Origin: Patescibacteria group bacterium
Lineage (GTDB): Bacteria > Patescibacteriota > Patescibacteriia > UBA9934 > GWF2-40-263
Assembly (NCBI GenBank): GCA_041661745.1
Contig: JBAZTR010000002.1
Location: 4,368 to 68,367 of the forward strand
Direction: 5' to 3'
DNA: 64,000 nucleotides
Shown here: one piece after another, positions 3,915 to 45,637 of the stretch
Layout of the letters: each line of letters begins with the position of its first letter
How positions within the stretch are numbered: position 1 is the first letter of the stretch
The notes under the pieces: generated by a model
Databases searched by the model: none
Seen by the model: the letters and a program-made list of their open reading frames with translations, nothing else
What the model was told of the DNA's origin: nothing
Program-made: the position numbers and the translations under genes

Positions 3915-3951
3915 AATAATGGGTGAATTAATAACCGGTTAATTATACTAC

Positions 3952-16300: not shown

Positions 16301-19300
16301 CATAATCTTCGTCCGATCCTTCACTCAAGCAAAGAGATGAACAACCGTCGTCATCGGTGGTATTGCCATCATCACAATCTTCGCCGGTTCCGATTTCACC
16401 ATCGCCACAAGCTGAAGGAATAGAGTAAGACGATGACGAACCTTCGTTTAGGCAAGACGACGAACACCCATCGCCATCGGTGGTGTTGCCGTCATCGCAA
16501 TCTTCGCCGTGTTCCGGGTCACTGCCATTGCCGCAGACACCATAAAAATTATCAATCGTTTCAGAACCTTCATTCAGACAATTGGCTGAGCAGTTATAAG
16601 CGGCTTTATCTTCACCGTAATCACACTCTTCCCCGCCAATCATATTGCTGTGAGCCACGAGACCGTCACCACAATCATATCCCAGGGATGAAGCCCCTTC
16701 GTTCAAACAAATAGACGAACAACCGTCATTGTTTGAAGTATTACCTAATTCGTCGCATTCCTCACCGATTCCTACTGCGCCATCACCGCAAACCGAAGGA
16801 GTACTGTAACTTCCACCGGAACCCAAACGAAGACAAGAAGAAGAACAGCCTTCCGTACCATCACAATCCTCCCCAAAGTCAATTTCACCATCACCACAAA
16901 CAGCTATCGGAGTTTCGGTTCCAATATGCAAACAATCTAAAGAACAACCATCGGCTAAATTATTAGAAATCATGATTGCCCCGCCACCAACCAAGTCGGC
17001 AATATTAGCCGTTGGCAATTCATCAGTTTCATCAATGGCCACCCAGGTTTCCCAGGTGTAGCCAGCGGCTATTAGTCGTTGGCCTTCGGCTGAACAGGCA
17101 TCGGGTGAGCCGTACGGCACAGCCGTAAAACGTTGAATTGTCCCAACCCGAGTGGCTGTGGCTTCGTTTGGTTCAACTTCTACTCGATCGACAGTACAAG
17201 CCTCAGCTTTAGTCGTAAAGGTCCATGACAAATCACCGTACCAAGCCAGGTCACCGGCCGCTTCACTTAACAACGAACCGCTCTCTGATTCAGCTTCACC
17301 AGAAATGATCACGCGATAAGAAGTATCAATCAACAAATTTCCGGGCGGAACAATTGTCAGTATGTCAGTTTCGTCATCGTAACTCGAGGCGACTGAACTA
17401 ATTTCTACTAGTTCATCAGGGGCACAACCTGGATCCTCGCAACTAAACAATCTAACTATTTGTTCACCACCACTATCCGTTCCGGAAAAAGTTCCGGCGG
17501 CCATTGGAATATTAAAAGTTGCGCCGATTTCCGCATCCAGGCAAGCTTCGGTACAACTCGGCCAGTAATCAGTAATTTTTGGATCAGTAAAGCTGATGGT
17601 TAAATATCCGTCATCACTGACACTGTAACCATCGGGCTGAGCATTAATCGCAACCGGGCCATCGGTGCCGGTTTCTTCCTCGGCTATAACCATCGCCCCA
17701 CAGCCGACAACACTACCAACACTTGCCTTACTCGAATCGCTGGAAGAAAAATTCCAGGTGTAAGGTGAACAGTCTAAAACCGTGCACTGATATTCCGAAC
17801 TGGTCGGCGCAGCACTATAAGCAATTTCCTCGTTTTGTATGTTTGAAGTCTTTTCGCCTGGCGAAACAATAACTCCACCAATTTCACAAGCGTCTCCAGA
17901 AGCCGCAGTTTCAAATTCCCAAATAACGTCTTCAAGCATTACTAAACCTTCGATACTTTGTATTGTTCCGACCTCACCACCATAAACGGTCACGCGATAT
18001 CGAGTATCGGCGGCCCAATCAGACGCGGGTATCCAGGTAAAACCACTTTCATTATAAGAAGTCGGCGAACTTTCCATTTCCACAGCCGCGGTGTCCGAAC
18101 AGGTTTTATCAGTACACTGCTCTACCAAAAAGCCGGCAGTTGAATATGAAAGCGCGTCCATGTCTTCGGTGAAACTGACACTTAAAGCCGCGTTAGAACA
18201 AATCTTTGTTCCGCCATCCCAACCTTCCCAAGGTGTCGGGGAAACCCATGTTTCATCACACTCAATGCGAACATCTGGCGCTTCAGGAATATCACCGGTG
18301 GAAAAATAATAGGCGTAATGTGAAACAGTCTCAGGGTCAACGCATTCCGTTGCTGAACAAGCCCCACTAGCACAACAAGTTTCACCCGAGCCGCAAGAAA
18401 AATCAACGTTACAAACGCCAACAGTAAAATTAACTTTGTTGGATTTCTGAGCATCACTGTCAATTACAATAACCGGACCACTGTTTGTGTCAGCAGGAAC
18501 AACCACGCCGGTTGTTTCACCAATTGCTCCACTCGTCCAATCATCAGTTGTGGCTGTTTGATCATTGAAAAAAGAAATCGAGCCGACCGTGGTACCAAAC
18601 CCCTCACCATATAAAGTAACCGCTGTGCCGACCGGACCGGAATTGGGAACAATGGCACAAAATCCGGGGGCCGCTTCGCCAGTAGTCACAACAAAGTTAA
18701 CTGCTTCGGATTTTAAACCATCTTCGGCCCGCTGTATGTATAAATCATGAGTAATCGCATCAACCGAATTGGTGTTGCTGTATTTCGCGGGAACTTTAAT
18801 AATAATTTCAGTATCACTCCAAAAACTGTCTTCGCATTCATCGGGAAAATTTGTGTCGCCTAAAGCTTCGTAATCTGTGCTTTGGCTAACAAACCGAACC
18901 GTTCCTTCGCTGGTACCAAAACCAGAACCATAAATGGTTAAATATTGGCCAATCGGGCCTTCTTCAGGATCAACCTGACTAATTACCGGAAGTTCCTCCT
19001 CAGTAACCGAAGTGGTAACAAATTGGAGTTCGTTAGAGCCCTCACGAGCATCGCCACTGCCGGTAAACAATTGAATATCGAAAATTCCGGCATCCAATAA
19101 CGGCGACACGGCCCCGAAAGATGTTGTTGACCAATCGCTGTAACTGGCCGCTTCATAAGAATCAAAATAAAGCGTAGCGTCAGTGCTTGATTCCCCAAGG
19201 TTAATACCGTGAAGTGTAACGGCAGAGCCAGCCTCGCCGCTTTCCGGATCAATAGAACAAAGGCCGGGGCGAACTGTTTCATTAACTTCAAAGTCGCTGA

Positions 19301-20870
19301 TATAAGAACCGTTTTCGTCGTTGGTTTGATCGTATTTGCCATCGGCAGCAATTAATTTAATCGGGCCGCTTTCGGCTTCGTCTTTTAATTGAATAATCAC
19401 TTGGCTATCACTCCAAGCTTCCACGCATTCCTCGCTGGAGTAAGCCGAATGACTAACTTCGGTCGTTGTCCCTAGAAAGACAACACTGCCCGGCGCTTCA
19501 CCAAAGCCTTGGCCAGAAATAGTAATTAAGTTACCAGGAGCGCCATCACCGGGCGAGACGGCTTCGATTTCCACTTCCTCTTCGCAAACACCATCAACAC
19601 ATGATCCGGAAGAGCAATCAGAGCTGTCAGTACATTCTTGGTTTTCGCAAGCGCCGCAATAAGAATCCGCCGATGAACTGCCACCACAATCAATCCCACT
19701 TTCACTTTCGTCTTGTACACCATTGTGGCACGAAGCGGCCCGTAACATCACGCTAATTTCCGCATCAACATCGTTACCGGCGCAATCAGAACCCTCGGCC
19801 AAAATACTATGGTCATCGTTGGTAAAATATCCGGCCGTGTCCCATTCGCTGTCAAAATAACCATCACCTTCGATGTCATTAACTGTGCTATTAATTCCGG
19901 TATCAATATAGAAATCAACCGAGGCTACCCCAGTATCATCAACCGCATATGCTTGAAGCATAGCGGCTTCGTCAGCGTAAACTGACTCGCCATCATCAGG
20001 CGCCGTAATTTCAAAAACCGTTGGCGCGGCTAAATCAAACCCCGTGCCCGTGGTAAAAGTAAATTCACACGGGTAAGCGGTTGAGCATTGAAGATCATAA
20101 CCACTGGAGCTTTGCAAAGCCGAACTGATGGTAATGTTATAGGTCGTTTCCGCTTCAAAACAATTAACTGAATAATCATCTTCGGCAAAACAGATTGCCT
20201 CAGGAGTAAAAGTAAACGAAGTGGCGCTGGCCGTGGTTGAGCGTCCAACCGCGGCAAAAGTGCCAGCCACTTCTTCCCCACCCTTGCTGATAGAAATGCC
20301 GGTGCCATCAACAACATCTTCCGTGGCTACGCGCTGACTGAAAATAAAACGCAACTCCAAATTTTGCAAACTTGAAGCGCAATCGGTATTAACACTGGTT
20401 AAAACAAAGGAATGGGCGTAATCAGGAATATCGCCACCGCCGCCCCCGCCGCCAACTTCAGTCCCGACGCCGCCACCAATTGAGCTAGTTAGTCTTGATA
20501 AAACAAATTGAGCGATGGTAAAAGAAGAAAGCATTATCAAAAGTCCGATAAGGCCGTTCTTTAAAACTTTTTTAGCTTTGGCTATTTTTTCTTCTTCACC
20601 ACCGGCCGTGACCCACAAAAAGCCAGCGTACAAAACAACAATTACCGCAACAATTCCCAAAAAGCCCAAAAAGGTTCGAATCGCTCGGGCAATCATTAAA
20701 ACCAGACTGCCGCTAGCCAAACCGGACGAGGCGGCAAAAGTTTCGCTATCGCCGCCAAACATTTGATTAGCGGTGAGAGTTTCGGCCAGAGCCGGAGTAA
20801 CAAACAAAAGGCCAAGGGCCACGCCTAATCCGACAATTATTAATAAAGATAAGAGACGATTTTTTTTCAC
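10305..20870 (-). CDS. giant (3521-aa) secreted or surface protein with a TrbC/VirB2-type pilin-like N-terminal membrane anchor, then IPT/TIG domains, tandem myxococcal Cys-rich repeats, a vWA domain and thrombospondin type-3 Ca-binding repeats
   Basis: Signal peptide ending ALA, then two TM helices around YAGFLWVTAGGEEEKIAKAKKVL and a poly-Gly linker. IPT-like GxGFG segments (ISGQGFGEAPGSVVF, TIYGSGFGTSEGTVRF, TLYGEGFGTTVGSISF). At least 10 CGDG-x-GE-CDDGN-x-DGCS-x-C repeats. vWA MIDAS DIVFVTDLSGSMS...SDGDP. DSDGDGVLDFNDNCPNDANEDQAD and DTDGDGIVDVEDNCP thrombospondin-3 repeats. Starts 4 nt downstream of the preceding gene. Confidence 0.8.
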   Translation of the reverse strand: MKKNRLLSLLIIVGLGVALGLLFVTPALAETLTANQMFGGDSETFAASSGLASGSLVLMIARAIRTFLGFLGIVAVIVVLYAGFLWVTAGGEEEKIAKAKKVLKNGLIGLLIMLSSFTIAQFVLSRLTSSIGGGVGTEVGGGGGGGDIPDYAHSFVLTSVNTDCASSLQNLELRFIFSQRVATEDVVDGTGISISKGGEEVAGTFAAVGRSTTASATSFTFTPEAICFAEDDYSVNCFEAETTYNITISSALQSSSGYDLQCSTAYPCEFTFTTGTGFDLAAPTVFEITAPDDGESVYADEAAMLQAYAVDDTGVASVDFYIDTGINSTVNDIEGDGYFDSEWDTAGYFTNDDHSILAEGSDCAGNDVDAEISVMLRAASCHNGVQDESESGIDCGGSSSADSYCGACENQECTDSSDCSSGSCVDGVCEEEVEIEAVSPGDGAPGNLITISGQGFGEAPGSVVFLGTTTEVSHSAYSSEECVEAWSDSQVIIQLKDEAESGPIKLIAADGKYDQTNDENGSYISDFEVNETVRPGLCSIDPESGEAGSAVTLHGINLGESSTDATLYFDSYEAASYSDWSTTSFGAVSPLLDAGIFDIQLFTGSGDAREGSNELQFVTTSVTEEELPVISQVDPEEGPIGQYLTIYGSGFGTSEGTVRFVSQSTDYEALGDTNFPDECEDSFWSDTEIIIKVPAKYSNTNSVDAITHDLYIQRAEDGLKSEAVNFVVTTGEAAPGFCAIVPNSGPVGTAVTLYGEGFGTTVGSISFFNDQTATTDDWTSGAIGETTGVVVPADTNSGPVIVIDSDAQKSNKVNFTVGVCNVDFSCGSGETCCASGACSATECVDPETVSHYAYYFSTGDIPEAPDVRIECDETWVSPTPWEGWDGGTKICSNAALSVSFTEDMDALSYSTAGFLVEQCTDKTCSDTAAVEMESSPTSYNESGFTWIPASDWAADTRYRVTVYGGEVGTIQSIEGLVMLEDVIWEFETAASGDACEIGGVIVSPGEKTSNIQNEEIAYSAAPTSSEYQCTVLDCSPYTWNFSSSDSSKASVGSVVGCGAMVIAEEETGTDGPVAINAQPDGYSVSDDGYLTISFTDPKITDYWPSCTEACLDAEIGATFNIPMAAGTFSGTDSGGEQIVRLFSCEDPGCAPDELVEISSVASSYDDETDILTIVPPGNLLIDTSYRVIISGEAESESGSLLSEAAGDLAWYGDLSWTFTTKAEACTVDRVEVEPNEATATRVGTIQRFTAVPYGSPDACSAEGQRLIAAGYTWETWVAIDETDELPTANIADLVGGGAIMISNNLADGCSLDCLHIGTETPIAVCGDGEIDFGEDCDGTEGCSSSCLRLGSGGSYSTPSVCGDGAVGIGEECDELGNTSNNDGCSSICLNEGASSLGYDCGDGLVAHSNMIGGEECDYGEDKAAYNCSANCLNEGSETIDNFYGVCGNGSDPEHGEDCDDGNTTDGDGCSSSCLNEGSSSSYSIPSACGDGEIGTGEDCDDGNTTDDDGCSSLCLSEGSDEDYGSICGDLDLETEAGEECEASGVTSVAPFTIAEISEEAPQEVLASGENIAITSIVATEGSSEAEGSATFTLECSCVSDYNCDTSGITYGCGDAACCFKRPAITDYYPVAGSTGVCRNTSVYMDFDQTMDAGGLNDSRALYLEFVSIGTGPTAIAVDETNCPTTYTTLLIARNDSGDNLFSRAWGWLAQNVLRILGVHAETFGACLVPVSYTLSELGDGSRIDLDFSQALESGTYNLVALGESAGDPLDNIVEGVVNTNGVAIYDGEIVNFEVGTEICALEMVSVEDTGKTELKDIFDEPSAYLFTESGEEHTLLAASYTLDGASAEEIQEIDDYSWTWGWGDESAETVIEVINVDDVTTTVTSSGVNGEELASASATVVSDGTIVTGSAELEANMCETLWPNPMTAAFPYLEDYSNFSFYYCRDQEGSDNLPELIEVEPPVTPSGVDILQERLFLIDGTSDAIGVRVFSNEDYLSPSAWFDVQGFSGSPSETTVDGYEAVQDGNTYYVSAANYSSSSVTNYPNIYVISYNEGAGEETDAIVEQVLENWKFNAGLNSSGDLEVSDINVCVSDGDYAVNAEGDYVSCVSNLDCISELSDASAFCDAEKGKLRRNMVRLTDARKIASDLAAYGEENRHCSVTKGQDCSEDDDCPGDDETCMAEVPEIQSGTFLSAFSTSTWPSWNAELGNALGTAIPTDPLNEFYCPGYTDQTYCWDSTAGTFSCSEDSNTYLYQSIGGEEYILSVQLEDSPGDYWAYPIDDDSTDNATVYAEFANAEDVANGFRIDSEFCNGSNLGTSTRCGDGVRGLSEICELGNTDTISCTYDSDDDGIDDNNGTMDAPCLSDCSDYMDESEAEAAGGSCSPYECGNGVLDPGETCDDGTNNGEYGYCDSDCGLDNAWYCGDGYLAGGEECDCGSTANWTDVHADTSSWSTINSCADANGIYDADAAHTCAYDCSYPGPSCGDGEVNSDESCDGNSEAWNGALCGAADNYATCTTDADCDETDCGTVYAACPISAVCDGGDRDNEECSEDADCTGGGDCKTSFEYQLSRYRTCDDGTGGACGWNTWSACLGGTQICGNGSVEGDEECDDGNDDNTDDCTAECKFNICGDDAVYAGHETCDDGLENGTVCSPDYSGTCNYCNVNCQYTTMSGSYCGDGVMQTGEFCDGSDLPKYCYLAGTNPDERGISTSACETDADCDTDNNYHCLEQVGVCNGGWRQASVCGDFICTLDGYYDYNGAPCVAGTGSSGYDCGIDSSGGTCMVADCGATCSATCPFSYSTTSVSIQTELAGATEETSADLYSYNSGDSPDTASIFLPACSVGTSLTADIDTTNIIPLDVDIVFVTDLSGSMSSTKIEATVNSISSAIQELFNAFDDYSNLQIGLVSFTNTLEDGSDHNNDGAITLADACITNSAGTTGLAWIDSDLTTNESQLIYGEYSVESYSTRTGGSTPLSAGLQCAANILEDSEADDQIIILLSDGDPNVLIDSSTYTSAYKYYEEIQDIRNAAIANGIEIYTAALMTTDALIGKMAHWSSDSCLENDPSETAYSNVADCSVTDDIEYAFSASSSDDLDEMYQQIADSIIGLTMTFTTDFAGETTLTSDEVFDGDDVVIPFPEGFGCDTENEWNIPFRISFSGEGTVNISDIKLSYCPASSASVGTGASSTIDSDGDGVLDFNDNCPNDANEDQADANLNEIGDVCEGAAGSVGSVGGGETLADTDGDGIVDVEDNCPSVVNVSQADADSDGIGDACDSGCGDGGIDTADGEYCDGGDFPKYCVNFDEDPSLRDIYALGSDTGCDAGYAENYGNILGICSGGTTGGYDFDSAVCYTSTSWSEAMCGSGADAGVCKANTCDGTCSTDTLSAYLPVCGDSIIDGGESCDETAFEDIYCVRGATNPASRVIKLASSCTDTATCDCSLFGPGYSAMAADDLGICDGGSRRLILPPVLYDYTNRLCVVGSSSASLYCGVTSGVWGTTAGTCVANTCGDDCDSSSIEDMFFP

Positions 20871-30372: not shown

Positions 30373-31467
30373 ATGTCTCTACAAGATCTGGGCTTTCTGT
30401 TGGCCTTGATACGCTTTCCAAAATTTGGAGCAGTTCGCCTCGCAAAATTGCGAGGATTTTTTCCCTCCATGGCCGCGGCCTTTGCGGCTGGCCAGAACGA
30501 ATTAATGGCCGCCGGAATCGATGCAACGACGGCCGAACAATTTATATCGCTTCGTCCAAAACTCTCGCCAGAACGAGAGTTGTTTTTAATTGATAAATAC
30601 AAAACCAAAGTTATTCTTAGAGATGATCTTGATTACCCACCGCTTCTAAAACAAATTCACGACCCGGCGGCCGCTTTATTTGTTCGTGGCACCTGGCCGG
30701 CCGTGGCCTTGCCAAGTTTGTCAGTGGTCGGTTCGCGCCAAGCCACACCGTATGCCGAGCGCGCCTCTGAAACCATCGTCAAACCACTCGCTCGAGCCGG
30801 ACTAGTTATTGTTTCCGGTTTAGCTCTTGGCACCGATGCTCTGGCTCATGAAGCTGCCCTTCAGGCCGGTGGAAAAACCATTGCCGTTCTTGGCTCGGGC
30901 ATCGACGATTATCATATCTTCCCTTCCTCTAATAGATATCTGGCACGAAAAATCATTGAAAACAACGGCGCGGTTATTTCTGAATATCCACCGGAAACCG
31001 AACCGCAAAAAATATTCTTTCCCATCAGAAATCGCATTATTGCCGGCATGTCACGCGGCACCATGGTTATCGAGGCTGGAATAAAATCAGGGGCGCTTAT
31101 TACGGCCAGAGCTGCTCTGGAAAACGGTCGTGAATTATTTGCCGTGCCCGGGCCCTTTCATTCGCCATTTTCCGAAGGCACCAACAATCTTATTAAAACT
31201 GGAGCGCATCCGGTGACTGAAGCTAATGATGTTCTTTTTGCCTTGGGTCTACGGTGCTTTGAGGAAAACAAAAAAAATAAAAAACCCGAAGCTGGCAGTC
31301 CGGCCGAAGCGGCCATCATTCAACTCTTAAGTGCCCAGCCAATTCACGTCGACGATTTGGCTCACGCCACTGGCAAAAATATTTCCGAAATCTCCCATTT
31401 ACTTACGCTAATGGAGATGAAAGGCACAGCCAGACATGTAGGAAATTTATACTACACAATTAACTAA
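30373..31467 (+). CDS. dprA: DNA processing protein DprA (Smf)
   Basis: Rossmann-like core GSRQATPYAERASETIVKPLARAGLVIVSGLALGTDALAHEAAL. Confidence 0.85.
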   Translation: MSLQDLGFLLALIRFPKFGAVRLAKLRGFFPSMAAAFAAGQNELMAAGIDATTAEQFISLRPKLSPERELFLIDKYKTKVILRDDLDYPPLLKQIHDPAAALFVRGTWPAVALPSLSVVGSRQATPYAERASETIVKPLARAGLVIVSGLALGTDALAHEAALQAGGKTIAVLGSGIDDYHIFPSSNRYLARKIIENNGAVISEYPPETEPQKIFFPIRNRIIAGMSRGTMVIEAGIKSGALITARAALENGRELFAVPGPFHSPFSEGTNNLIKTGAHPVTEANDVLFALGLRCFEENKKNKKPEAGSPAEAAIIQLLSAQPIHVDDLAHATGKNISEISHLLTLMEMKGTARHVGNLYYTIN

Positions 31468-31530
31468 ACCTTGACTAAACGTAAAAAATACCGCATTATC
31501 TTATCGTCTTAGTATTATTTCATTCGATCC

Positions 31531-31619
31531 GTTCAACTTGTTCAAGTGTTCAAAATGTTCACTGTCGACCGATCTACAAAACCAAAAATGAACAATTTGA
31601 ACATATGGACACTTGAACA
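31531..31619. repeat. near-palindromic array of 8-9-bp periodic GTTCAA/TGAACA motifs (copy A; 4 forward plus 3 inverted units)
   Basis: GTTCAActtGTTCAAgtGTTCAAaatGTTCAC ...26 nt... TGAACAattTGAACA..TTGAACA. The architecture and periodicity match copy B at 43484-43575. Confidence 0.6.
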
Positions 31620-31629
31620 AAAAAACAAC

Positions 31630-33873
31630 ATGTCATACTCATTAGTCATCGTCGAGTCTCCGGCGAAAGCAAAAACTATCTCCAAATACCTGGGCAGTAA
31701 ATACAAAGTACTGTCCTCTTTTGGTCATGTCCGCGATTTGCCACAAAAGGAAATTGGCGTGGATACCGAACACGGCTTTATCCCAAAGTACGTGGTTTCA
31801 CGCGATAAAATGAAGCAGGTTAAACTGCTTAAAGAAGGGGCAGCCAAGGCTGACGAAATTTTATTCGCAACTGATGAAGACCGTGAAGGAGAAGCTATTT
31901 CTTGGCACCTGGCCCAAATTCTTAAGGTTGACCCAGCCAAATTAAAACGCATTACTTTCCACGAAATTACCAAACGGGCCATTGATCACGCTATTGAAAA
32001 TCCACGTAATCTTGATTTGAATTTGGTTAACGCCCAACAAGCGCGCCGTATTCTTGACCGCTTGGTTGGTTACGAGCTATCGCCGTTTTTGTGGCGCAAG
32101 GTGCAGAAAGGTTTGTCCGCCGGCCGCGTGCAATCGGTCACCGTGCGCTTAGTAGTGGAACGCGAACGTGAACGTGAAGCTTTTAAGCCGCAGGATTTTT
32201 GGACTATCGACACTCTCTTTAATAAGGATCAGATTTCCTTCCCCGGCAAACTGCACGCTATTGGTGAAAAAAAGTTAGATAAACTTGGAATTGATTCTGA
32301 AGTCGAAGCGGAAAAAATTCTTGAAGCTTTAAAGAATGGAAAATACGAAGTCGCCGAGGTAACTAAAAAAACCGTTAAGCGTTCGCCGGCTCCGCCGTTT
32401 ACCACATCAACTCTACAACAAGAAGGCAATAACAAACTTGGTTTTGGTGCCAAGGAAACCATGATGCTCGCCCAAAAGCTTTATGAGGGGGTCACTCTGC
32501 CCGGCGAAGGTCAGGTTGCGCTTGTCACCTACATGCGTACCGATTCGACCAATCTTTCTGAACTTTTTATTAATGAAGCGCGAACTTTTATTTCCGACAA
32601 ATTCGGGGCTGATTATCTTTTGGATAAACCGCGAATTTTTAAAACAAAAGACAAAGGGGCACAAGAAGCGCACGAAGCTATTCGCCCAACCGATGCCTCA
32701 CGCACGCCTGATTCCATTAAAGACGCCTTGGATCGCGACTTGTGGAGGCTTTATGATCTAATCTGGCGCCGGGCGGTTGCCACCCAATTACCCGAAGCTA
32801 TCTTTGATTCCACTTCGGCCGACATTGCCACCGGTGAATATATTTTCCGCTCGACTGGCTCGACTATTAAATTTGACGGTTTCCTAAAAGTCTACGAAGA
32901 AAAACGAAAAGATTCTCTTTTGCCGGAGTTGGCCAAAGGCGATGCCGTGGCTTTGGAAAACCTGGAAAGTAAAAAGCACACCACTGAACCGCCGGCTCGT
33001 TACTCTGATGCTTCGCTGGTTAAGGCTTTGGAAGAACACGGCATTGGTCGCCCGTCCACTTACGCCCCAACTATTTCCACCATTTTGGAACGCGGCTATG
33101 TCGAACGTGACGAGGCTAAAAAATTAAAACCCAACCAAGTGGCCTACACAGTTACTGATCTCTTGGTCGAACACTTTCCAAATATTGTTGACTTGGCTTT
33201 CACGGCCAAAATGGAAAAAGATTTAGACCAAGTGGCCGAAGGTAAAGCCGAATGGGTCCCGGTCCTGCAAGAATTTTACGGCCCATTCCATGATAATTTA
33301 AAAGAAAAGGAAAAGTCAGTGGTTAAACTAAAGCCGGCCGACAAGCCGACCGATCAAGTCTGCGAAAAGTGCGGCAAGCCCATGGTTATTCGTGGTGGCC
33401 GCTTTGGCGATTTCTTGGCTTGCAGTGGTTTTCCGGAATGTAAAAACACCAAACCTTTAGCACAAAATGCCAACGGCGAGGCCGTGGCCGCTGAACCAGA
33501 GGTGGTGGAAGATCTTTGTCCAACCTGCGGCGCGGCCATGATTATGAAACGCGGTCGTTTTGGCCCATTCATCTCATGTTCCAAATATCCGGAATGTAAA
33601 ACCATTAAAAAAATCGAAAAGAAAACCGGGGTCAAATGTCCGCAATGTGGCGAAGGTGAGATTGTCGAAAAGAAAGGCCGGAGCGGCCGCCCGTTCTTCA
33701 GCTGCAACCGTTATCCTGATTGTAAATTCGCCTTGTGGCAAAAACCAACCGGTGAAAAATGTCCCACCTGCAGCAGTCTTATGACCTTTGCCGCCAAGGG
33801 TATGACCCAATGTTCCAACAAAGAATGCGGTTTCAAAAAGAGTTTGGAAACATCGGAAACACCAGAAACCTAA
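31630..33873 (+). CDS. topA: DNA topoisomerase I with C-terminal zinc-ribbon repeats
   Basis: MSYSLVIVESPAKAKTISKYLG Toprim start and several C-terminal CxxC...CxxC fingers. The ORF-track start at 31546 would run through the GTTCAA repeat array, so the internal Met at 31630 is preferred. Confidence 0.9.
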   Translation: MSYSLVIVESPAKAKTISKYLGSKYKVLSSFGHVRDLPQKEIGVDTEHGFIPKYVVSRDKMKQVKLLKEGAAKADEILFATDEDREGEAISWHLAQILKVDPAKLKRITFHEITKRAIDHAIENPRNLDLNLVNAQQARRILDRLVGYELSPFLWRKVQKGLSAGRVQSVTVRLVVEREREREAFKPQDFWTIDTLFNKDQISFPGKLHAIGEKKLDKLGIDSEVEAEKILEALKNGKYEVAEVTKKTVKRSPAPPFTTSTLQQEGNNKLGFGAKETMMLAQKLYEGVTLPGEGQVALVTYMRTDSTNLSELFINEARTFISDKFGADYLLDKPRIFKTKDKGAQEAHEAIRPTDASRTPDSIKDALDRDLWRLYDLIWRRAVATQLPEAIFDSTSADIATGEYIFRSTGSTIKFDGFLKVYEEKRKDSLLPELAKGDAVALENLESKKHTTEPPARYSDASLVKALEEHGIGRPSTYAPTISTILERGYVERDEAKKLKPNQVAYTVTDLLVEHFPNIVDLAFTAKMEKDLDQVAEGKAEWVPVLQEFYGPFHDNLKEKEKSVVKLKPADKPTDQVCEKCGKPMVIRGGRFGDFLACSGFPECKNTKPLAQNANGEAVAAEPEVVEDLCPTCGAAMIMKRGRFGPFISCSKYPECKTIKKIEKKTGVKCPQCGEGEIVEKKGRSGRPFFSCNRYPDCKFALWQKPTGEKCPTCSSLMTFAAKGMTQCSNKECGFKKSLETSETPET

Positions 33874-33917: not shown

Positions 33918-35450
33918 TTATTTTTTACTTTTATCGTCCTGGCGATCCAGAGCTTTGCCCTTCAATCTTTCATATTCCTTCGCCGCCTCTTCTTCTTTCT
34001 CGTCCAAAGTCTTAAGCCCGGGTTTATAACTCTTAGAAATCATACCGCCGAATTTTTTTTGCCAACCGTATAATGTTCTGTCCAACCAATTCATTCCCGC
34101 GCCAACCGCTCGAAGTGGTAATTCTATTGCTGCCGCCAAACCTAGAATTCCCAAACCGCCGGCTAATTGCCCGGCCGCTCGGCCGTAAGTTTTAACCATG
34201 TCTAATCCGGTTACGCCGGTTCTTTTTACCAAAGAATCACTTGAGCCGCCCACTTGATCATAACCATGAAGCTGCCTTCGCAATATATAATCGGTAACCA
34301 TGGTGGAATCGCGCAAGTGCGGTTTTAGGCGATCGGTAAACGGAATATCCCAACCTCGGCCATGATAAGCCCGCTTGGCCCAATACGGACCCCACAGGCC
34401 GGTAAAAAGACCGGTAAAGGTTAAGTACTGTATTTTTTCCGCACTAACGGCCGGCCGACCCAACAACAAAAGGTTAGTTCGAGTATCGTCGTAAGGATAA
34501 ACAAGATGTTTCTGACGTTCCATGGTTCGTCGTAATAATTCCTTTCGGAAGGCCAAAGACGAACCGTAAGCCTCATAAAGATCGTGGCCTGTTGCTTCCC
34601 CAAAGACCGCAGCTTTTTCTTCTGTCAACAGATTAACCTGGCCCTCGGCTGAGCACCAAGCCGCCGAATGTTCGGTTTCTAATTTTCGATATTTTTTTCT
34701 AACATTTATAAAATCAACACGGCCTTCTGAAAAATCGGTTTGGAGTTCTTTTGAATCGTCTTCTAGTTTTTTCCGTTTTTCGATTTCTTTTTTGATAATT
34801 TTTGCCGAAACCGTGGCTTCTTCGGTTTCCACCAGTTTCTTTTTTTTGCCCTTACCGCCACCAACTTCTTTTTTAACCACATGAGTTTCCAAAGCCCCCA
34901 AAGCCCGAAGAGTTTCTCGAATCAAAAAAGGAAACTCGGCTGGTGGTAAATCAAGCGGAACAGTAATCTCGGCCGTTTCTGTTTCACGTCCACCAATGGT
35001 TTCTTTTTTTAAAGCAACTCGCAAACTTTGCCCATAGACAAAAGACAGTTGCGCGGCTTTTTCTTTTTCTACCCCTAAAGCTTCGGTAATTGTTTTAATT
35101 TCACCGGTCGCGGTTTCTATACCAATGGCGGCCACACCGCCATTTTTTCGGTCACCGCCAGCCAAATAAAAATCCGCGCCGCTGGTTCTTTCAACCCCGG
35201 CCGCAACACGATGTGCCGCCTCTTGAGCCTCTTTAATAGCGGCTCGCGCTTGTTCCTCACGAGTTTGACCCTCTAGACGGCGGGCCGCTAAATATTTTTC
35301 ACGGACCGTGTCTTTTTTTTCAACATCCCCTTCCCCTTCGTCCCCCTCCTCCACCCCGTCATGTTCTTTATCAGAATCAGACGAATATGGCTTTCTCTCG
35401 AAATCTCGATCTGGTGTATAAGTTCTCCGTCTTGGCTTTGGGTCTGGCAT
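33918..35450 (-). CDS. hypothetical protein (510 aa) with no recognisable domain
   Basis: Long ORF with an acidic N-terminus, Lys-rich coiled-coil-like segments and a Gly/Ala-rich C-terminal region. Divergent from relA. Confidence 0.55.
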   Translation of the reverse strand: MPDPKPRRRTYTPDRDFERKPYSSDSDKEHDGVEEGDEGEGDVEKKDTVREKYLAARRLEGQTREEQARAAIKEAQEAAHRVAAGVERTSGADFYLAGGDRKNGGVAAIGIETATGEIKTITEALGVEKEKAAQLSFVYGQSLRVALKKETIGGRETETAEITVPLDLPPAEFPFLIRETLRALGALETHVVKKEVGGGKGKKKKLVETEEATVSAKIIKKEIEKRKKLEDDSKELQTDFSEGRVDFINVRKKYRKLETEHSAAWCSAEGQVNLLTEEKAAVFGEATGHDLYEAYGSSLAFRKELLRRTMERQKHLVYPYDDTRTNLLLLGRPAVSAEKIQYLTFTGLFTGLWGPYWAKRAYHGRGWDIPFTDRLKPHLRDSTMVTDYILRRQLHGYDQVGGSSDSLVKRTGVTGLDMVKTYGRAAGQLAGGLGILGLAAAIELPLRAVGAGMNWLDRTLYGWQKKFGGMISKSYKPGLKTLDEKEEEAAKEYERLKGKALDRQDDKSKK

Positions 35451-37059: not shown

Positions 37060-37095
37060 GGAACAAAAATTTTTGTTCCCTATTTTGTTTTTATT
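37058..37095. terminator. bidirectional rho-independent terminator between convergent relA and parB
   Basis: Perfect palindrome AGGGAACAAAAATTTTTGTTCCCT flanked by A-runs and T-runs on both sides. Confidence 0.7.
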
Positions 37096-37975
37096 ATATT
37101 TCGGATAATCTGGCCAACAATTCCATTAAGTCTTCTTTTGAATAAAAATGCATGGTGATTGTCCCCTTCCCGACACGTTCACGAATTTCTACCTTGGTTC
37201 CCAGAATCTCTTGCAACCTTTTTTCGTGCGCCACTAAATTAGGATCAACCCGACGACCAAACACTGACTTGGGGCGATGTCCGGCCACCGTGTGCTCGGC
37301 GGAACGAACTGTGACCTTACCGGTTAACATGGCCTGAAAAAGTTCTTTTTGTTTAACTGGGTCATTTTCCGAGAGCAACGTGCGTGCATGACTCTTGGTA
37401 ATCTTGTCCTCTTTAAGAGCGTCTTGAATGTATTCAGGTAATTCTAGCAAACGCAGAGTATTGGCCACGGCCGGTCGACTTTTTCCAACTCTAACTGCTG
37501 CTTCTTCTTGGGTAAAATTAAATTCATCCATCAAGGTTCGATAAGCCAAAGCTTCTTCCAATGGATTAAGATCAGCTCGTTGCAAGTTTTCAATCAAAGC
37601 CCACTCAATTTTTTGTTGTTTTGTGGCATCACGAACAATAACCGGCACGGTTTTTAAACCAAGGGCTTTGGCCGCTCGCCAACGTCGTTCCCCGGCAATC
37701 AATTCATACTGATTATCACAAAAAGTCACCACCAGTGGTTGAAGAATACCGTGCTCTTTAATTGAGCTGATCAAATCATCTAAATCAGCCGCGGCAAAAT
37801 GCCGACGTGGCTGATGCGGATTGGGAACAATGTCGCCAACCGGAATTTCTTTAATCTCTTGATGGCCGACAACCGAGGTAACAACCTCGGAAACTTTTTT
37901 GGTGGGAATGAGCGAACCGAGGCCCCTCCCAAGCACTGGTTTTGTAATCATAACTTTATAAATCACCGTTTTCAC
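37094..37975 (-). CDS. parB: chromosome partitioning protein ParB/Spo0J
   Basis: ParB box GERRWRAAKALGLKTVPVIVRD and an HTH region. Confidence 0.9.
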   Translation of the reverse strand: MKTVIYKVMITKPVLGRGLGSLIPTKKVSEVVTSVVGHQEIKEIPVGDIVPNPHQPRRHFAAADLDDLISSIKEHGILQPLVVTFCDNQYELIAGERRWRAAKALGLKTVPVIVRDATKQQKIEWALIENLQRADLNPLEEALAYRTLMDEFNFTQEEAAVRVGKSRPAVANTLRLLELPEYIQDALKEDKITKSHARTLLSENDPVKQKELFQAMLTGKVTVRSAEHTVAGHRPKSVFGRRVDPNLVAHEKRLQEILGTKVEIRERVGKGTITMHFYSKEDLMELLARLSEI

Positions 37976-38729
37976 GCATCAAAAATTCTTGTGCCAAACG
38001 TTCGTAGGCTCGGGCGGCTTTTGATGTGGGATCGTAATGAAGAATAGTTTTACCAAATGACGGCGCCTCGGCCAAGCGAACACTGCGCGGCACAACCGAA
38101 CGAAAAATGTTGTTAGGAAAATACCGATAAAGCTCTTCTAAAACCTCTTTTGAAAGTTTGGTGCGCGAATCATACATGGTAATAACCGCGCCCATGACTT
38201 TCAAATCAGGATTAAGTTGTTCGCGAATAAGATCAACTGTACCAAGAAGTTGTCCCAATCCTTCAAGCGCATAATATTCGGCCTGCACTGGAATTAAGAC
38301 TGAATCAGCGGCCGTAAGACCATTAACGGTTAAAAGACCGAGTGAAGGCGGATTGTCAATTAAAACATAATCAAAATCGTTTCGCACTTCCAAAATACCC
38401 TTACGCAAGCAGTGTTCGCGTTCCTCGGCTCCAACCAATTCAACAGCCGCCCCGGCCAAAGCTTGCGTTGCTGGAATAAGTTTTAGTCCTTCGTGTGCTG
38501 TCGGCATAATCAAATCGCGCATGCGATGTGTACCGATCATGCCTTCATAAATACCCGCCGGTACATTACGATAATCTATTCCTAAACCGGAAGTGGCGTT
38601 GGCTTGCGGATCCAAATCAATTAATAAAACAAACTTGCCCAGGTGAGCAAGGTAGGCGGCCAAACTCAAAGAGGTGGTGGTTTTCCCCACTCCACCCTTC
38701 TGATTTACAATCGAAACCACGTGTGCCAT
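37956..38729 (-). CDS. parA: chromosome partitioning ATPase ParA/Soj
   Basis: Deviant Walker A, VVSIVNQKGGVGKTTTSLSLAAYLA. Overlaps parB by 20 nt. Confidence 0.9.
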   Translation of the reverse strand: MAHVVSIVNQKGGVGKTTTSLSLAAYLAHLGKFVLLIDLDPQANATSGLGIDYRNVPAGIYEGMIGTHRMRDLIMPTAHEGLKLIPATQALAGAAVELVGAEEREHCLRKGILEVRNDFDYVLIDNPPSLGLLTVNGLTAADSVLIPVQAEYYALEGLGQLLGTVDLIREQLNPDLKVMGAVITMYDSRTKLSKEVLEELYRYFPNNIFRSVVPRSVRLAEAPSFGKTILHYDPTSKAARAYERLAQEFLMRENGDL

Positions 38730-41945: not shown

Positions 41946-42907
41946 TCAAAAGTGTTATAAGTCCAAACCGTCAAAGCTTTTACATCGCGCAACCGACCGG
42001 CAGCTGAGTCAGAACCAAGAACAACAACAAAAATATCTTTGCCGCCGTCTTTTTGTGCTTCCACTCCAAGACAATATCCAGCCTCGGGCAGATAGCCGGT
42101 TTTTCCGCCGACAATCTTATAAGGCTCTTGATTTACAAAACCGGTTAAAAGTTCGTTGGTGTTTTCAAGCTGATAGTTATTCCCCTCAGCGTCGGTAATC
42201 GTGGCCGCCGCTTGTTCGGTGGCAAAACGAATGGTTTCATTTTGCAATGCCGCCCGCAACATGGCCACTAAATCCGGCGCCGTCGAACGATTTTCCGAAG
42301 ACAAACCAGTGGGATCGGCAAAAGTTGTTTGAAGCATACCGATCTCGGCCGCTTTTTCGTTCATGCGCGCCACGAAATCGCCTTCTGAAAAACCGGATAA
42401 ACGCGCCAGGGCGGCCGTCGCTGTGTTGTCCGAAGAAATTAAGCTGGCCAAAAGCAAATCTTTTATTGTTACTGTCTGACCGGCCGGAATATGTTGTTTA
42501 CCACCTTCACGATAATCACTTGATTCAATTATAGCCGTCGTGTTGAGATCAGGGTTTCCTGAAAGAAACACCAGAGCTGTCATAAGCTTGGTCATACTGC
42601 CAATGGAGCGTGCTTCTTCGGCGTTCTTTTCGTACAGAACTGTGCCGCTGGCTGAATCCATAACCAAAGCCGTGGTGGCCGCCGTAATCACTCCAATACT
42701 TTCCGGATTATTTTTTTTCGGAGCCCGAGCCACATCTACTGCCACCGGGAAACTCGGCCGCATTGCCGTCATGGCCGCACCAAAACTGGTTTCGATTGTT
42801 TCCGTGTCAGCGGCTTTTACGTATGACTCAACCACCCCGGCGTCAACCGGAAAAATTTGAACCAAACTGATGGCCAAAATAATTTCAACAAAAGCTTTAT
42901 AAATCAT
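41939..42907 (-). CDS. dacA: D-alanyl-D-alanine carboxypeptidase (peptidase S11, PBP5-like)
   Basis: Signal peptide, the SIGSMTKLMTALV (SxxK) and SSDN motifs, and KTG. Confidence 0.8.
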   Translation of the reverse strand: MIYKAFVEIILAISLVQIFPVDAGVVESYVKAADTETIETSFGAAMTAMRPSFPVAVDVARAPKKNNPESIGVITAATTALVMDSASGTVLYEKNAEEARSIGSMTKLMTALVFLSGNPDLNTTAIIESSDYREGGKQHIPAGQTVTIKDLLLASLISSDNTATAALARLSGFSEGDFVARMNEKAAEIGMLQTTFADPTGLSSENRSTAPDLVAMLRAALQNETIRFATEQAAATITDAEGNNYQLENTNELLTGFVNQEPYKIVGGKTGYLPEAGYCLGVEAQKDGGKDIFVVVLGSDSAAGRLRDVKALTVWTYNTFDW

Positions 42908-43476
42908 ACTATTTGTTTTTCGGCCGGAACAGTTTCTGCCCCGCTTAATTCCCGAATCATTTGATCAATTTGCGGATTGTTATTAAAGTTTTCAAATTCC
43001 GGCAATTCCGAAACATTTTTAACCCCAAGATGCCGCAAAAAATCCAAAGAAACCGAATAAACCGACTGTAATTTGGTTGAATCATCTTTTTCTTCAATCA
43101 ACCCGCGCATTAAAAGATTGCGCAAAATTAAAGTACAGTTAATGCCGCGAATCTGCTCAATTTCCGGCTTAGTCATGGGCCCACGGTAAGCAATAATCGT
43201 CAGCGTTTCCAGCGATGGTCGGGTTAATTCCCCACCCATATCTTCTTTGGCAAAAATCTTAACCGCCTCAGCCGCGGCTGGGTTAGTGGCCAGCTGTAGT
43301 TTGCCTTCTTGTTCCAAAAAATGAATGCCTGAACTTTCAACATTGCGAAGATTTTTAAGTTCTTCAATCGCTTCGCGCAAAGTTTCCTGATTAGTATTCA
43401 AGGCTTTAGCCAAAGTTTTAATATCAAGTGGTTTAGCCGCGGCAAAAAGTATGGCTTCAAGAGTGGTGGTTAACAT
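42904..43476 (-). CDS. scpB: segregation and condensation protein B
   Basis: Winged-helix repeats LEAILFAAAKPLDIKTLAKAL and IAYRGPMTKPEIEQIRG. Confidence 0.85.
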   Translation of the reverse strand: MLTTTLEAILFAAAKPLDIKTLAKALNTNQETLREAIEELKNLRNVESSGIHFLEQEGKLQLATNPAAAEAVKIFAKEDMGGELTRPSLETLTIIAYRGPMTKPEIEQIRGINCTLILRNLLMRGLIEEKDDSTKLQSVYSVSLDFLRHLGVKNVSELPEFENFNNNPQIDQMIRELSGAETVPAEKQIV

Positions 43477-43483
43477 ATTTTTG

Positions 43484-43575
43484 GTTCAAAATGTTCAATT
43501 GTTCAAATTGTTCACTTTTGGCTTACAGCTCGATCCGATAGTGAACAAGTTGAACAGGTTGAACAAATTGGACAA
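43484..43575. repeat. near-palindromic array of 8-9-bp periodic GTTCAA/TGAACA motifs (copy B; 4 forward plus 4 inverted units) filling the scpA-scpB intergenic space
   Basis: GTTCAAaatGTTCAAttGTTCAAattGTTCAC ...27 nt... TGAACAagtTGAACAggtTGAACAaatTGGACA. Confidence 0.6.
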
Positions 43576-44334
43576 TTATTCATTCCTAGTAAGCACGATT
43601 TCTTCAAAAGCTTCAGGTTGTTGAACTTTAATTATTCTTTGTTTTACTAATTCAAGCAGGGCTAAAAAACTCACCACCACTTCAGCCCGCGATTTGGCCG
43701 CGCCAACCACATCGGAAAACATAAACCTGGCCCGTTTCATTATTGCCTCGTGGATGTCGCGAATACGCTCCTCAACCGAGGCGACTCGTTCCAGCGAAGC
43801 TTGGCGTAAAGCGAAAAAAGGTTCCAGACGTTTAATCAGACCACGGAAAGCTTCGGCCAAAACATTTGTTGTCACGTTTTCCGGCGGACGAAAACCAACT
43901 TCAACCGGCAACGGCACATATGGCCGGGCAAACAACACTGCCCCGCCCAAATACATATTTTCCAATTTGCCGGCCACGTCCACAAAAGTGCGATAAAGTC
44001 TAAGCTGGGCGGCTAAATTGCTTTGCTCAACTGCCTCTTCAAGTGGGACAGGCAAAATGGAATTAGATTTAATCAGCAATAAACGCGCGGCCACGGTTAA
44101 AAAATCTGCCAGCTCTTCGGCTGGAACATTATTTTCGTTTATAAACTTAAGATAATCGCCAGTAACTTGGGCCAGCGACACCTCGGAAATCGGCAACTCC
44201 TCCTTTTCAATTAAAGTAAGCAGCAAATCAAGCGGACCGGAGAATTTTTCTATTGAAACTTCGTAAGACACAATTTTATGGACGCAGTCTTTGAACATCG
44301 CGAGGGAAAAGAGTGGCTTCTTTGATGTTATCAA
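43576..44334 (-). CDS. scpA: segregation and condensation protein A (kleisin)
   Basis: FSGPLDLLLTLIEKEEL N-terminal motif. The 5' end overlaps the 3' end of the upstream aaRS gene, so the true start may be the internal Met. Confidence 0.85.
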   Translation of the reverse strand: MITSKKPLFSLAMFKDCVHKIVSYEVSIEKFSGPLDLLLTLIEKEELPISEVSLAQVTGDYLKFINENNVPAEELADFLTVAARLLLIKSNSILPVPLEEAVEQSNLAAQLRLYRTFVDVAGKLENMYLGGAVLFARPYVPLPVEVGFRPPENVTTNVLAEAFRGLIKRLEPFFALRQASLERVASVEERIRDIHEAIMKRARFMFSDVVGAAKSRAEVVVSFLALLELVKQRIIKVQQPEAFEEIVLTRNE

Positions 44335-45586
44335 GACCGAGAATGTTTTGCGTCATTCTTTGTAAACCCATACCAAATCCACCTTCTGGCGGAATACCGA
44401 ATTTATGCATCATTAAATAATCTTCAAAGTCGGCCGGATTCAATCCTTTGGCTTTAATTCTTTCCACTTGCTCGTCATAGCGGTTAATACGTAAACCACC
44501 GGAAATTATCTCGCTACCAAAACCGATTAGGTCAAAACTCAAAGTTGAGGTTAAATCTTCTGGATCAACCACTGTATAAAACGGCCGTTTCTTTTCCGGA
44601 TAGTGTGTTACAAAAACAAAACCGCAATTATGTTCTTTTGGCCCCCAAACCGTTGATAGCCATTTTTCGGCCGCCGGCGAAAGGTCCGGCTCGGCTGTTT
44701 CATCAATCCCCGTTCCTTGCTTATAAAGCTCCAGAGCCTCGGTCAACCTGATACGCGGAAATTTTTCACCAAGCGGTGGCAGAGTTGTATTTAATAGTGA
44801 CAATTCCGTCTGACAATCCTCGGAAACGGTTTTCAACATCGTTCTAATGGAAGCCTCGGCGTAGTTCATGATGTCTTCCATATTATCAACGAAACCGACT
44901 TCGAATTCCAATTGGTTAAATTCCGTTAAATGCCGCGAGGTGGCAAATTTTTCAGCCCGGAAAGAATACGAAACTCCATACACCCCTTCGAAAACGCCCA
45001 TGGTAATTTGTTTGTACAGCTGTGCTGACTGGGAAAGGGTGGCTTCGCGGCCGTAATAATCAACTTTAAAAAATTCCGCTCCACCTTCGGAAGCCGCACC
45101 AGCCAAAACCGGAAAAAATATCTCTGTAAAATCTTGGCTGTCCATGTAAGTGCGGAAGCCTTTAACTAAAGCCGCCTGCACGCGAAAAATTGCCCGCTGT
45201 TTTGGATGACGCAAGGTTATAACCCGATTATCAAGAAGCGTTTCCAATTGAACTTCCAAATTATCTTTGTTTATTTCAACCGGCACCACGTCTTTTACTG
45301 GTGACAACACTTCCACCTTGGTTGCCTGTACTTCAACTTCGTTGGCGTTTGGATCTTTGCTTTGTTTTTTTACCACCCTACCGGTAACCCGTAACACGGT
45401 TTCCATTTGCAGGTCTTTAATTTGCCCGAGCTGGTCGGCATCAAGCACCACCTGCAATAATCCGGTGCGATCGCGCAAAATAGCAAAACCAAATTTGTTC
45501 AAATCGCGTAAACGATGAAGCCAACCGGCAACGATTACTTCTTCACCAATCTTTTGAGCAACATCTTTGTTTAAAACTCGATTCAT
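44276..45586 (-). CDS. aspS: class IIb aspartyl-tRNA synthetase (archaeal/non-discriminating type) or a second AsnRS-like enzyme
   Basis: OB-fold N-terminus, motif 2 FRAEKFATSRHLTEFNQLEFE and motif 3 GGFGMGLQRMTQ, and the ending LFPRDVQRLRP. At 436 aa it is too short for a bacterial-type AspRS. Confidence 0.7.
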   Translation of the reverse strand: MNRVLNKDVAQKIGEEVIVAGWLHRLRDLNKFGFAILRDRTGLLQVVLDADQLGQIKDLQMETVLRVTGRVVKKQSKDPNANEVEVQATKVEVLSPVKDVVPVEINKDNLEVQLETLLDNRVITLRHPKQRAIFRVQAALVKGFRTYMDSQDFTEIFFPVLAGAASEGGAEFFKVDYYGREATLSQSAQLYKQITMGVFEGVYGVSYSFRAEKFATSRHLTEFNQLEFEVGFVDNMEDIMNYAEASIRTMLKTVSEDCQTELSLLNTTLPPLGEKFPRIRLTEALELYKQGTGIDETAEPDLSPAAEKWLSTVWGPKEHNCGFVFVTHYPEKKRPFYTVVDPEDLTSTLSFDLIGFGSEIISGGLRINRYDEQVERIKAKGLNPADFEDYLMMHKFGIPPEGGFGMGLQRMTQNILGLDNIKEATLFPRDVQRLRP

Positions 45587-45600
45587 ATAAAATTTATTCT

Positions 45601-45637
45601 CCCTCTCCTTACGAAGGAGAGGGTTGGGGTGAGGTTA
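45601..45637. repeat. hairpin repeat element, copy 1 (CCCTCTCC-TTACGAA-GGAGAGGG-TTGGGGTGAGGTTA); its last TTA is the stop codon of asnS
   Basis: Perfect 8-bp stem with a 7-nt loop. Lies between two co-directional genes. Confidence 0.7.

Follow-up and report, generated by a model that had tools for sequence, protein, structure and literature searches.

What is the periodic array of GTTCAA words that lies just upstream of topA in this Patescibacteria genome: part of the gene, a site bound by a protein, a mobile element, or a by-product of mutation? The original prediction, made on the same window (the whole 64,000-nucleotide stretch of DNA analyzed here), described a probably noncoding, near-palindromic element and likened its geometry to iterons, transposon-end arrays, or a MITE more than to a promoter. 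Here, we examined the array itself, its sister copies, and the corresponding gene junctions in related genomes.

Layout of the array

The array, referred to here as array A, spans positions 31531 to 31619 upstream of topA, as reading the sequence confirmed. It reads cGTTCAAct-TGTTCAAg-TGTTCAAaa-TGTTCAC, followed by a 26-nt center and then TGAACAatt-TGAACAta-TGGACAct-TGAACA; the repeat unit is the heptad TGTTCAA plus a spacer of 1 to 2 nt. In the 5′ arm (31531 to 31562, plus strand), recognized by sequence reading, pair count, and density scan, the units are cGTTCAA, TGTTCAA, TGTTCAA, and TGTTCAC. Their GTTCA cores start at 31531, 31540, 31548, and 31557, the fourth unit being GTTCAC, and this bears out the four direct GTTCAA(A/C) units at 9-8-9 bp spacing that had been described. 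The 3′ arm (31589 to 31619, plus strand), recognized by sequence reading and density scan, has inverted TGAACA units at 31589, 31598, and 31614 and a degenerate unit, TGGACA, at 31606, with 9-8-8 bp spacing. The mirrored arm of the original prediction therefore stands, but its count of three inverted units missed the degenerate one, and the design is 4+4 rather than 4+3. The center, TGTCGACCGATCTACAAAACCAAAAA, occupies 31563 to 31588 (plus strand) when counted after the C that closes the last 5′-arm unit, TGTTCAC, and is 27 nt long (31562 to 31588) when counted between GTTCA and TGAAC; the gap of about 26 nt originally given thus holds only if that last C is excluded. The two arms are 83% complementary over 23 nt.

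The arrangement is far from what base composition would produce. Pairs of the form GTTCA-N2-5-GTTCA number 11 in the window, where 0.71 would be expected (a count reached in 0 of 100 shuffles), and nine of these pairs fall in two arrays, A and a second one, B. GTTCA alone is at background in the window (149 occurrences versus 144 expected), and a density scan of the 64 kb returned only two GTTCA clusters, array A and the interval 43484 to 43574.

Position relative to topA

Upstream of array A is dprA (30373 to 31467, plus strand; Pfam DNA_processg_A and DprA_WH), whose stop codon occupies 31465 to 31467. Downstream, the 3′ end of the array lies 11 nt before the ATG at 31630, which we take as the true start of topA (31630 to 33873, plus strand; Pfam Toprim/Topoisom_bac) on the strength of the NCBI protein, the Pfam domains, and orthologue N termini. 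The product read from this ATG is 100% identical to a 747-aa NCBI protein from a MAG, and the seven TopA orthologues all begin MSYSLVIVESPAKA or MS(K/H)xLVIVESP at the ATG.

An open frame does lead from a GTG at 31546 through the array into topA, and array A could on that basis encode an N-terminal extension of TopA, MFKMFTVDRSTKPKMNNLNIWTLEQKNN, giving a 775-aa protein. This is hardly credible. Because the seven orthologues begin at the MSYSLV/MSxxLV methionine, we regard the frame as an ORF artefact; the annotated protein is the 747-aa form, the 28-aa stretch matches no Pfam family, and the sequence upstream of topA is unconserved and, in the relatives L003, L249, and L250, too short for such an extension. 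The same artefact lengthens a JGI ScpB call in another genome (L262, 2501 to 3184, P0242), which reads through an array. The expectation that array A is noncoding was thus correct, and for annotation the arrays are noncoding and cause over-extended N termini in gene calls (TopA, 775 versus 747 aa; ScpB, 227 versus 190 aa). Array A is a real, nonrandom, noncoding DNA element.

Nor is array A itself a promoter, as had been foreseen. A promoter scan placed a sigma-70-type promoter-like site, TTGACT-17-CATTAT, upstream of it at 31471 to 31499 (plus strand), and TTGACN-17-CATYAT is found upstream of topA in the window and in six relatives (L001, L002, L003, L248, L249, and L250). As the array is downstream of a promoter-like site that recurs in seven genomes, it probably lies in a topA 5′ leader of ~120 nt; its placement is read from the sequence, and we infer its transcription. 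Between the array and the ATG is an A-rich stretch, AAAAAACAAC (31620 to 31629, plus strand), which carries no Shine-Dalgarno motif, is unpaired in the predicted fold, and is host sequence common to the array-free relative L003 (AAAAACAA). Promoter and terminator scans detected no terminator-like site at array A or B and no promoter inside either. An intrinsic-terminator test on the two arrays returned 0 sites, and the sense strand continues with an A-run rather than a T-run.

The window belongs to a Uhrbacteria-like Patescibacterium, and its topA locus is a conserved chromosomal neighborhood in the six relatives for which topA loci were fetched. Convergent with topA in the window is a 510-aa gene without a Pfam match (33918 to 35450, minus strand), and a no-Pfam gene of 409 to 540 aa occupies the same position beside topA in all six relatives examined. 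Elsewhere, the window encodes a giant protein of 3,521 aa (10305 to 20870, minus strand) with faint or weak Big_5, TSP_3, and VWA domain matches, and two adjacent Asp/Asn-tRNA-synthetase paralogues upstream of scpA (44276 to 46936, minus strand).

A dispersed family of GTTCA arrays

Array B (43484 to 43574, minus strand) is a sister copy of array A. Read on the plus strand, it has four GTTCA units at 9-8-9 spacing, a 27-nt center, and three TGAACA units plus one TGGACA, so the two arrays have one design, 4+27+4. Array B fills the 99-nt gap between scpA (43576 to 44334, minus strand; Pfam ScpA) and scpB (42904 to 43476, minus strand; Pfam ScpB) and, in gene orientation, ends 7 nt before the scpB ATG at 43476. 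When oriented by the downstream gene, the centers of A (plus) and B (minus) are similar (CTGTCGACCGATCTACAAAACCAAAAA versus CTATCGGATCGAGCTGTAAGCCAAAAG), and that of array A is partly conserved with its sister copies (TATCGGATCG...AACCAAAAG). Even so, between A and B the cores are far better preserved than the unit spacers and centers: 14 of 16 cores are perfect GTTCA despite the diverged center.

The original prediction had proposed a search for further copies and made its reading depend on finding copies or conservation in related genomes. Copies were found in the window (array B), in other genomes, and in metagenomes, whereas conservation at topA itself is absent. A genome-collection search with the pattern TGTTCAAN{1,2}TGTTCAAN{1,2}TGTTCA gave, among the matches listed, mostly unrelated tandem 8-mers in Bacteroidota and others; the useful ones were a MAG, L053, and examples from Saccharibacteria and Fluviicola. 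The relative L002, whose TopA is 82% identical, has a GTTCA copy between parA and parB (16473 to 16562). In L053, a copy lies in opposite orientation between murI and a GNAT gene; a metagenome contig, L169, has flanks near-identical to those of L053 and is apparently the same locus, and a further family member is in L206. The six copies (A, B, and those in L002, L053, L169, and L206) align with 68% mean column identity and a shared center, with the consensus ...TGTTCAACTTGTTCAC-TATCGGATCGAC..AAACCAAAAG-TGAACAATTTGAACA..., and, with L053 and L169 apparently one locus, the gene contexts that they occupy include at least four that are unrelated. By sequence comparison, array A is a member of a dispersed family and not a topA-specific site. 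Three of the four or five independent CPR copies precede chromosome-maintenance genes (topA, scpB, and parB), which a purely selfish model does not predict. The part of this genome that we examined comprises the 64 kb and about 15 kb more.

Breadth in metagenomes and placement in gene gaps

A metagenome scan for two direct and two inverted GTTCA units around a 26- to 29-nt center found mirrored arrays in at least 120 contigs. These are real arrays because most of the matches listed carry extra flanking units; they occur in AT-rich and GC-rich backgrounds alike. Among the matches listed with two clear flanking ORFs, 41 were in codirectional, 11 in convergent, and 4 in divergent gaps, and the arrays among the matches listed typically fit within 5 to 30 nt of the flanking ORFs. 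The placement of GTTCA arrays is generic and REP/MITE-like and avoids promoter regions. Mirrored GTTCA arrays are also present in Saccharibacteria, Fluviicola, Flavipsychrobacter, Saprospiraceae, and Rhodospirillaceae MAGs. CGGAT/ATCCG is present in 19 to 22 of the 93 array centers listed, against an estimated 4 or so expected, a count inflated by kinship among copies. In viral contigs, control pentamers gave 1 to 3 matches versus 4 for GTTCA, which is not demonstrably special there, and for this reason we make no claim that GTTCA itself is special.

GC-richer soil and groundwater contigs (L146, L135, L140, L214, and L230) carry GTTCAAGNC-type 9-bp mirrored arrays with a conserved center (..GGCCGGATTGGTCGACG..). 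One of them, L146, appears to be Candidatus Binatia-like, judging by a single named homologue (85% identity); its two copies (3920 to 4010 and 6711 to 6792) are less than 3 kb apart, one in a convergent and one in a divergent gap.

Turnover at orthologous junctions

Orthologous gene junctions were compared across relatives. At topA, the leader of L003 (TopA 80% identical) is 39 nt long, lacks an array, and can be aligned to the window sequence to either side of the insertion (..ATTTCA(T/A)T / AAAAACAA..). L001, L002, and L248 have long topA leaders occupied by other short-period arrays: CTCCAAATCACAAA in four copies in L001, TTTCCAAAT in three and AATAATTA in four copies in L002, and TCCCAAA in four copies in L248. 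The notion of a topA-specific element thus fails, since close relatives have either no array or an unrelated one in its place. More distantly, in L249 and L250 (TopA 66 to 72% identical), the −10 box is only 7 to 8 nt from the ATG and topA looks leaderless; this suggests that insertion or expansion of arrays is what lengthened the topA leaders in the window clade. The sites in these two genomes read TTGACG-17-CATYAT, 7 to 8 nt, and then the topA ATG (L249, 9900 to 10010; L250, 6500 to 6570).

The parA/parB junction varies in the same way. In the window (parB/parA, 37094 to 38729, minus strand; Pfam), 4 nt separate stop from ATG and there is no array; the junction is likewise empty in L249 and, by gene coordinates, in L001 (5-nt gap). 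In L002, it holds the GTTCA array described above; in L003 (8832 to 8938), four to five GTAGA units, a center, and four to five TCTAC units; and in L248 (8877 to 8960), a CTAAT/ATTAG array. The centers of these three arrays all begin TTGGA. At scpA/scpB, the window has GTTCA, L262 (2440 to 2612) has GGGATT/AATCC, L263 (2380 to 2482) has GGAGT/ACTCC, L265 (2425 to 2497) has GTAAA/TTTAC, and L264 (2420 to 2500) has none. These differences between orthologous junctions of sister genomes show that gain, loss, and re-wording of arrays outpace about 15 to 20% protein divergence, while mirror symmetry persists.

Several words also coexist in single genomes. L002 by itself holds mirrored GTTCA, GTAAA, and CGAAT arrays. 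L261, an independent assembly that overlaps the window with identical proteins and is taken as the same genome, has two arrays just outside the window: a mirrored CTTGTAG/CTACAAG array (1065 to 1213) that ends 5 nt before the ndk ATG and a direct (ACTACTC)x4 array (5355 to 5405) that separates a TATAAT box from the start codon of a gene for an M50 peptidase. L263 has a mirrored CGAAT array before scpA whose center resembles that of the L002 GTTCA array (..CGATCCAACA). At the convergent ends of topA and its neighbor in L002 (12229 to 12330), a perfect GC hairpin (CCGTCGGAT..ATCCGACGG) is bordered by GTAAAAAC/TTTTAC arrays, a layout that resembles a bidirectional terminator whose T-rich tails are periodic.

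Predicted folding and start regions

Array A is predicted to fold at −27.3 kcal/mol (z = −5.1) and array B at −29.8 kcal/mol (z = −5.5), and values for the arrays of relatives go as low as −54 kcal/mol (z = −9 to −10). Every array tested is predicted to form a long hairpin (z = −4 to −10) in which the last 3 to 19 nt before the AUG stay unpaired. Shine-Dalgarno motifs (GGAG, GAGG, or AGGA upstream) precede only 5 of 60 window genes, and since such motifs are almost absent, start regions must rely on being unstructured and A-rich. Several window genes (e.g., those starting at 38729, 23641, and 50842) have a TATAAT-like box about 9 to 10 nt before the ATG, which suggests leaderless mRNAs or mRNAs with very short leaders. 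With such folds and start regions, it is plausible that a leader or intercistronic hairpin acts at the RNA level, on processing, stability, or ribosome entry.

Two comparisons that looked for selection at the RNA level were both negative. Complementarity between the arms is no higher for spacers of the same rank than for those of different rank (51.9% versus 54.6%), and sense and antisense folds show no consistent bias, the GTTCA family folding worse in sense. Judged from these comparisons, conservation falls on the unit word and the mirror layout and not on a finely compensated stem, a pattern that fits concerted evolution of tandem units and also a sequence-specific binder. In an Rfam search, only tRNAs reached the gathering threshold and the arrays matched no family; at E ≤ 10, they drew only spurious miRNA-hairpin matches far below thresholds.

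Alternative explanations

A sequence-specific binder would make the arrays operator- or centromere-like sites in double-stranded DNA, each heptad being bound at 8- to 9-bp phasing on both mirrored arms by an oligomerizing small protein, either of the ribbon-helix-helix kind (omega, ParG, or MetJ) or ParB-like, that coregulates topA, scpB, and parB. We consider this unlikely, although it would account for the retention of the core word while spacers and center drift, for the lack of rank-specific compensation between arms, for a sense RNA that is not the better folder in the GTTCA family, and for copies before topA and scpB in the window and parB in L002; known binding by omega, ParG, and MetJ, moreover, uses arrays of 7- to 8-bp units, direct or inverted. 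It has difficulty with topA loci that have no array (L003, L249, and L250) or unrelated words (L001, L002, and L248), with at least three or four core words in one roughly 1-Mb genome, which would need as many specific proteins, and with the L053/L169 copy in an unrelated and oppositely oriented context (murI/GNAT) and other mirrored GTTCA arrays between convergent genes. Array A is also downstream of a promoter-like site and array B inside an operon, and no candidate binder or partner gene was found, nor any canonical parS in the window. The suggestion that ParB might bind array A found nothing to link the two. parS is a 16-bp palindrome, TGTTNCACGTGAAACA, bound by ParB; its only match in the window, at 34980, has 3 mismatches and is at chance level, and array A has no contiguous 16-bp palindrome. 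The comparison with iterons fared no better, as no rep gene or origin is among the flanking genes examined and the neighbors are dprA and topA. Iterons are direct repeats of about 17 to 22 bp beside a rep gene, with an AT-rich unwinding element and DnaA boxes; plasmid or phage replication iterons were rejected on the 8- to 9-bp units, the center that is not AT-rich, and the conserved chromosomal neighborhood. Other ideas were dropped as without any support: an integron attC site (GTT/AAC polarity reversed), LexA/Cheo or alphaproteobacterial GTTC-N7-GTTC boxes (which differ in spacing and symmetry), tRNA T-arm mimicry, mimicry of the 16S 3′ tail by the GGATC center, DNA uptake sequences, and small translated ORFs across array A.

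Two further explanations concern how the arrays arise. A classical MITE, a nonautonomous transposon whose arms are multisite transposase-binding ends mobilized in trans by an insertion sequence or transposon, seems improbable, yet descriptively the MITE label of the original prediction suits a small, palindromic repeat of about 90 bp with mirrored arms, multiple copies within and between genomes at nonorthologous sites (A, B, L002, L053/L169, and L206), and both filled and empty sites at topA, parA/parB, and scpA/scpB (the L003 topA leader and the parA/parB gap of the window being empty). Depletion from divergent, promoter-containing gaps is likewise a trait of REP and MITE elements. The label falters on mechanism, and the transposon-end comparison of the original prediction finds no support: A, B, L002, and L146 show no visible target-site duplication (duplications of 1 to 2 bp would escape the filled/empty comparison at topA), and at the loci examined the ORFs and precomputed Pfam annotations gave no sign of a transposase gene. 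Nor do A and B look like young MITE copies, their spacers and centers having drifted much further apart than their cores, and in L002, L003, and L248 the core word changes while the TTGGA.. start of the center and the junction stay, which looks like in situ turnover rather than repeated insertion. Rapid turnover at fixed junctions would instead be expected if the arrays were a purely mutational by-product, minisatellite expansion combined with quasi-palindrome template switching under weak repair, arising independently at each site with neither function nor mobility. Many unrelated core words, mirrored or not, do fill gaps in L002, L003, L248, and L261, and the ancestral topA leader contains TTTCAAT, a possible seed. 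We nevertheless find this account distinctly unlikely, since the GTTCA family shares its word, the 4+27+4 layout, and the 27-nt center across loci and genomes (B versus L053: TATCGGATCG..AACCAAAAG), and a layout and center shared at unrelated loci argue for common descent and spread, not independent origin.

Relation to known repeat elements

Array A falls within a known kind, the dispersed intergenic short-repeat and palindromic elements, from which its foldback architecture distinguishes it. Its closest analogues are the cyanobacterial STRR (short tandemly repeated repetitive) heptamers, the TAACTGA heptamers, and hairpins of the REP/MITE kind. The TAACTGA repeats, found in Beggiatoaceae, Cyanobacteria, and Bacteroidetes (MacGregor 2015, PMC4679880), occur in sets that are almost all direct (169 direct and 1 indirect) and lie just upstream of starts without ribosome-binding sites, where a posttranscriptional role has been proposed but is unproven (PMC4679880). 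An RNA-level effect of the hairpins would parallel that proposal, as the arrays, too, are just upstream of starts lacking ribosome-binding sites. Like STRR and TAACTGA repeats, the arrays consist of short (7- to 9-nt) units present two to six or more times in intergenic DNA, mostly a few nucleotides before such starts, and they share with them downstream genes that have no common functional theme and a patchy distribution among phyla. Cyanobacterial genomes hold several STRR word families side by side. The window clade likewise has several words per genome, in tandem intergenic units of 8 to 9 nt in A and B and of 7 to 9 nt in the same and sister genomes. Unlike the direct-only STRR, A, B, and most of their relatives are mirrored, and unlike TAACTGA sets, the arrays form two arms with an 8- to 9-nt period around a partly conserved center, and at a given junction their core word differs from one sister genome to the next.

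With REP/BIME and MITE-type repeats (REP, ERIC, Correia, and RUP), the arrays share small size, noncoding and hairpin-forming character, dispersal, and a position in transcribed gaps at gene ends or between cistrons, with underrepresentation in divergent promoter regions. REP/BIME and MITE-type repeats can affect mRNA stability or processing. A REP is a 20- to 40-nt imperfect palindrome with a 5′ GTAG or GTGG head and is associated with a RAYT gene; array A does not have this form, its arms being built of tandem subrepeats with no GTAG head, and no RAYT, transposase, or target-site duplication was seen at the loci examined. The copy number per genome also appears low compared with REP and MITE types (2 in 64 kb). 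Eukaryotic foldback (FB) transposons have inverted arms of tandem short subrepeats around a central loop, and the arrays resemble them in having inverted arms of short tandem units around a center; FB transposons, however, are kilobase-scale and eukaryotic and have known transposases, and the likeness comes without shown homology or shared mechanism. Finally, short units with 7- to 11-bp phasing, both direct and inverted, are known from the omega heptads of pSM19035, the ParG ACTC boxes (8-bp period), the 8-bp metboxes of MetJ, and iterons/parC. Ribbon-helix-helix arrays and iterons sit at promoters or centromeres beside the gene of the protein that binds them, with which they are conserved, whereas the arrays described here have no partner gene, are downstream of a promoter-like site or within an operon, and are unconserved. 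In the literature on the motif words, on tandem repeats in Patescibacteria, and on bacterial foldback and MITE elements, we found no description of this element.

Interpretation and implications

With moderate confidence, we interpret array A as one copy of a dispersed, fast-turnover, hairpin-forming foldback short-tandem-repeat element and not as a dedicated regulator of topA. On this interpretation, it would be a foldback element of about 90 bp, with four TGTTCAA heptads at 8 to 9 bp, a 27-bp center, and four inverted heptads, noncoding and placed between the recurring promoter-like site and the topA start, and it would be transcribed in the leader if that site is a promoter. Its class would be hypervariable mirrored miniarrays in the tight intergenic gaps of this Patescibacteria clade, occupying promoter-to-ATG gaps, stop-to-start gaps inside operons, and some convergent 3′ ends. 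Such arrays may arise and be homogenized by slippage-type duplication plus copying between arms, and some families, such as GTTCA with its TATCGGATCG...CCAAAAG center, may have spread to new sites. The main consequence would probably be at the RNA level, where a long imperfect hairpin ending 7 to 11 nt before the AUG would leave an A-rich, unpaired, Shine-Dalgarno-free start region. The hairpin could modulate mRNA processing, stability, or translation entry, or it could be nearly neutral.

A stronger version, which we think quite improbable, is that mirrored hairpins 3 to 19 nt before starts are functional expression modules in these Shine-Dalgarno-less, leaderless-prone Patescibacteria. Cleavage by a double-strand-specific RNase would then free near-leaderless mRNAs for scpB, parB, and topA, or, alternatively, the hairpin could serve as a structured platform presenting the unpaired A-rich start region. 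Arrays would be kept at the same junctions while their sequence was continually reinvented by concerted evolution of both arms.

For topA, array A provides no evidence for supercoiling- or ParB-linked control. More broadly, the arrays show the scarce intergenic nucleotides of ultrasmall CPR genomes to be a hot spot for mirrored miniarrays whose core word is swapped from one sister genome to another at fixed promoter-to-ATG and stop-to-start junctions. If the arrays affect processing or translation in a genome nearly devoid of Shine-Dalgarno sites, they would constitute a lineage-specific layer of gene expression control; if they have no such effect, they would offer a clean natural system for the concerted evolution of palindromic minisatellites.
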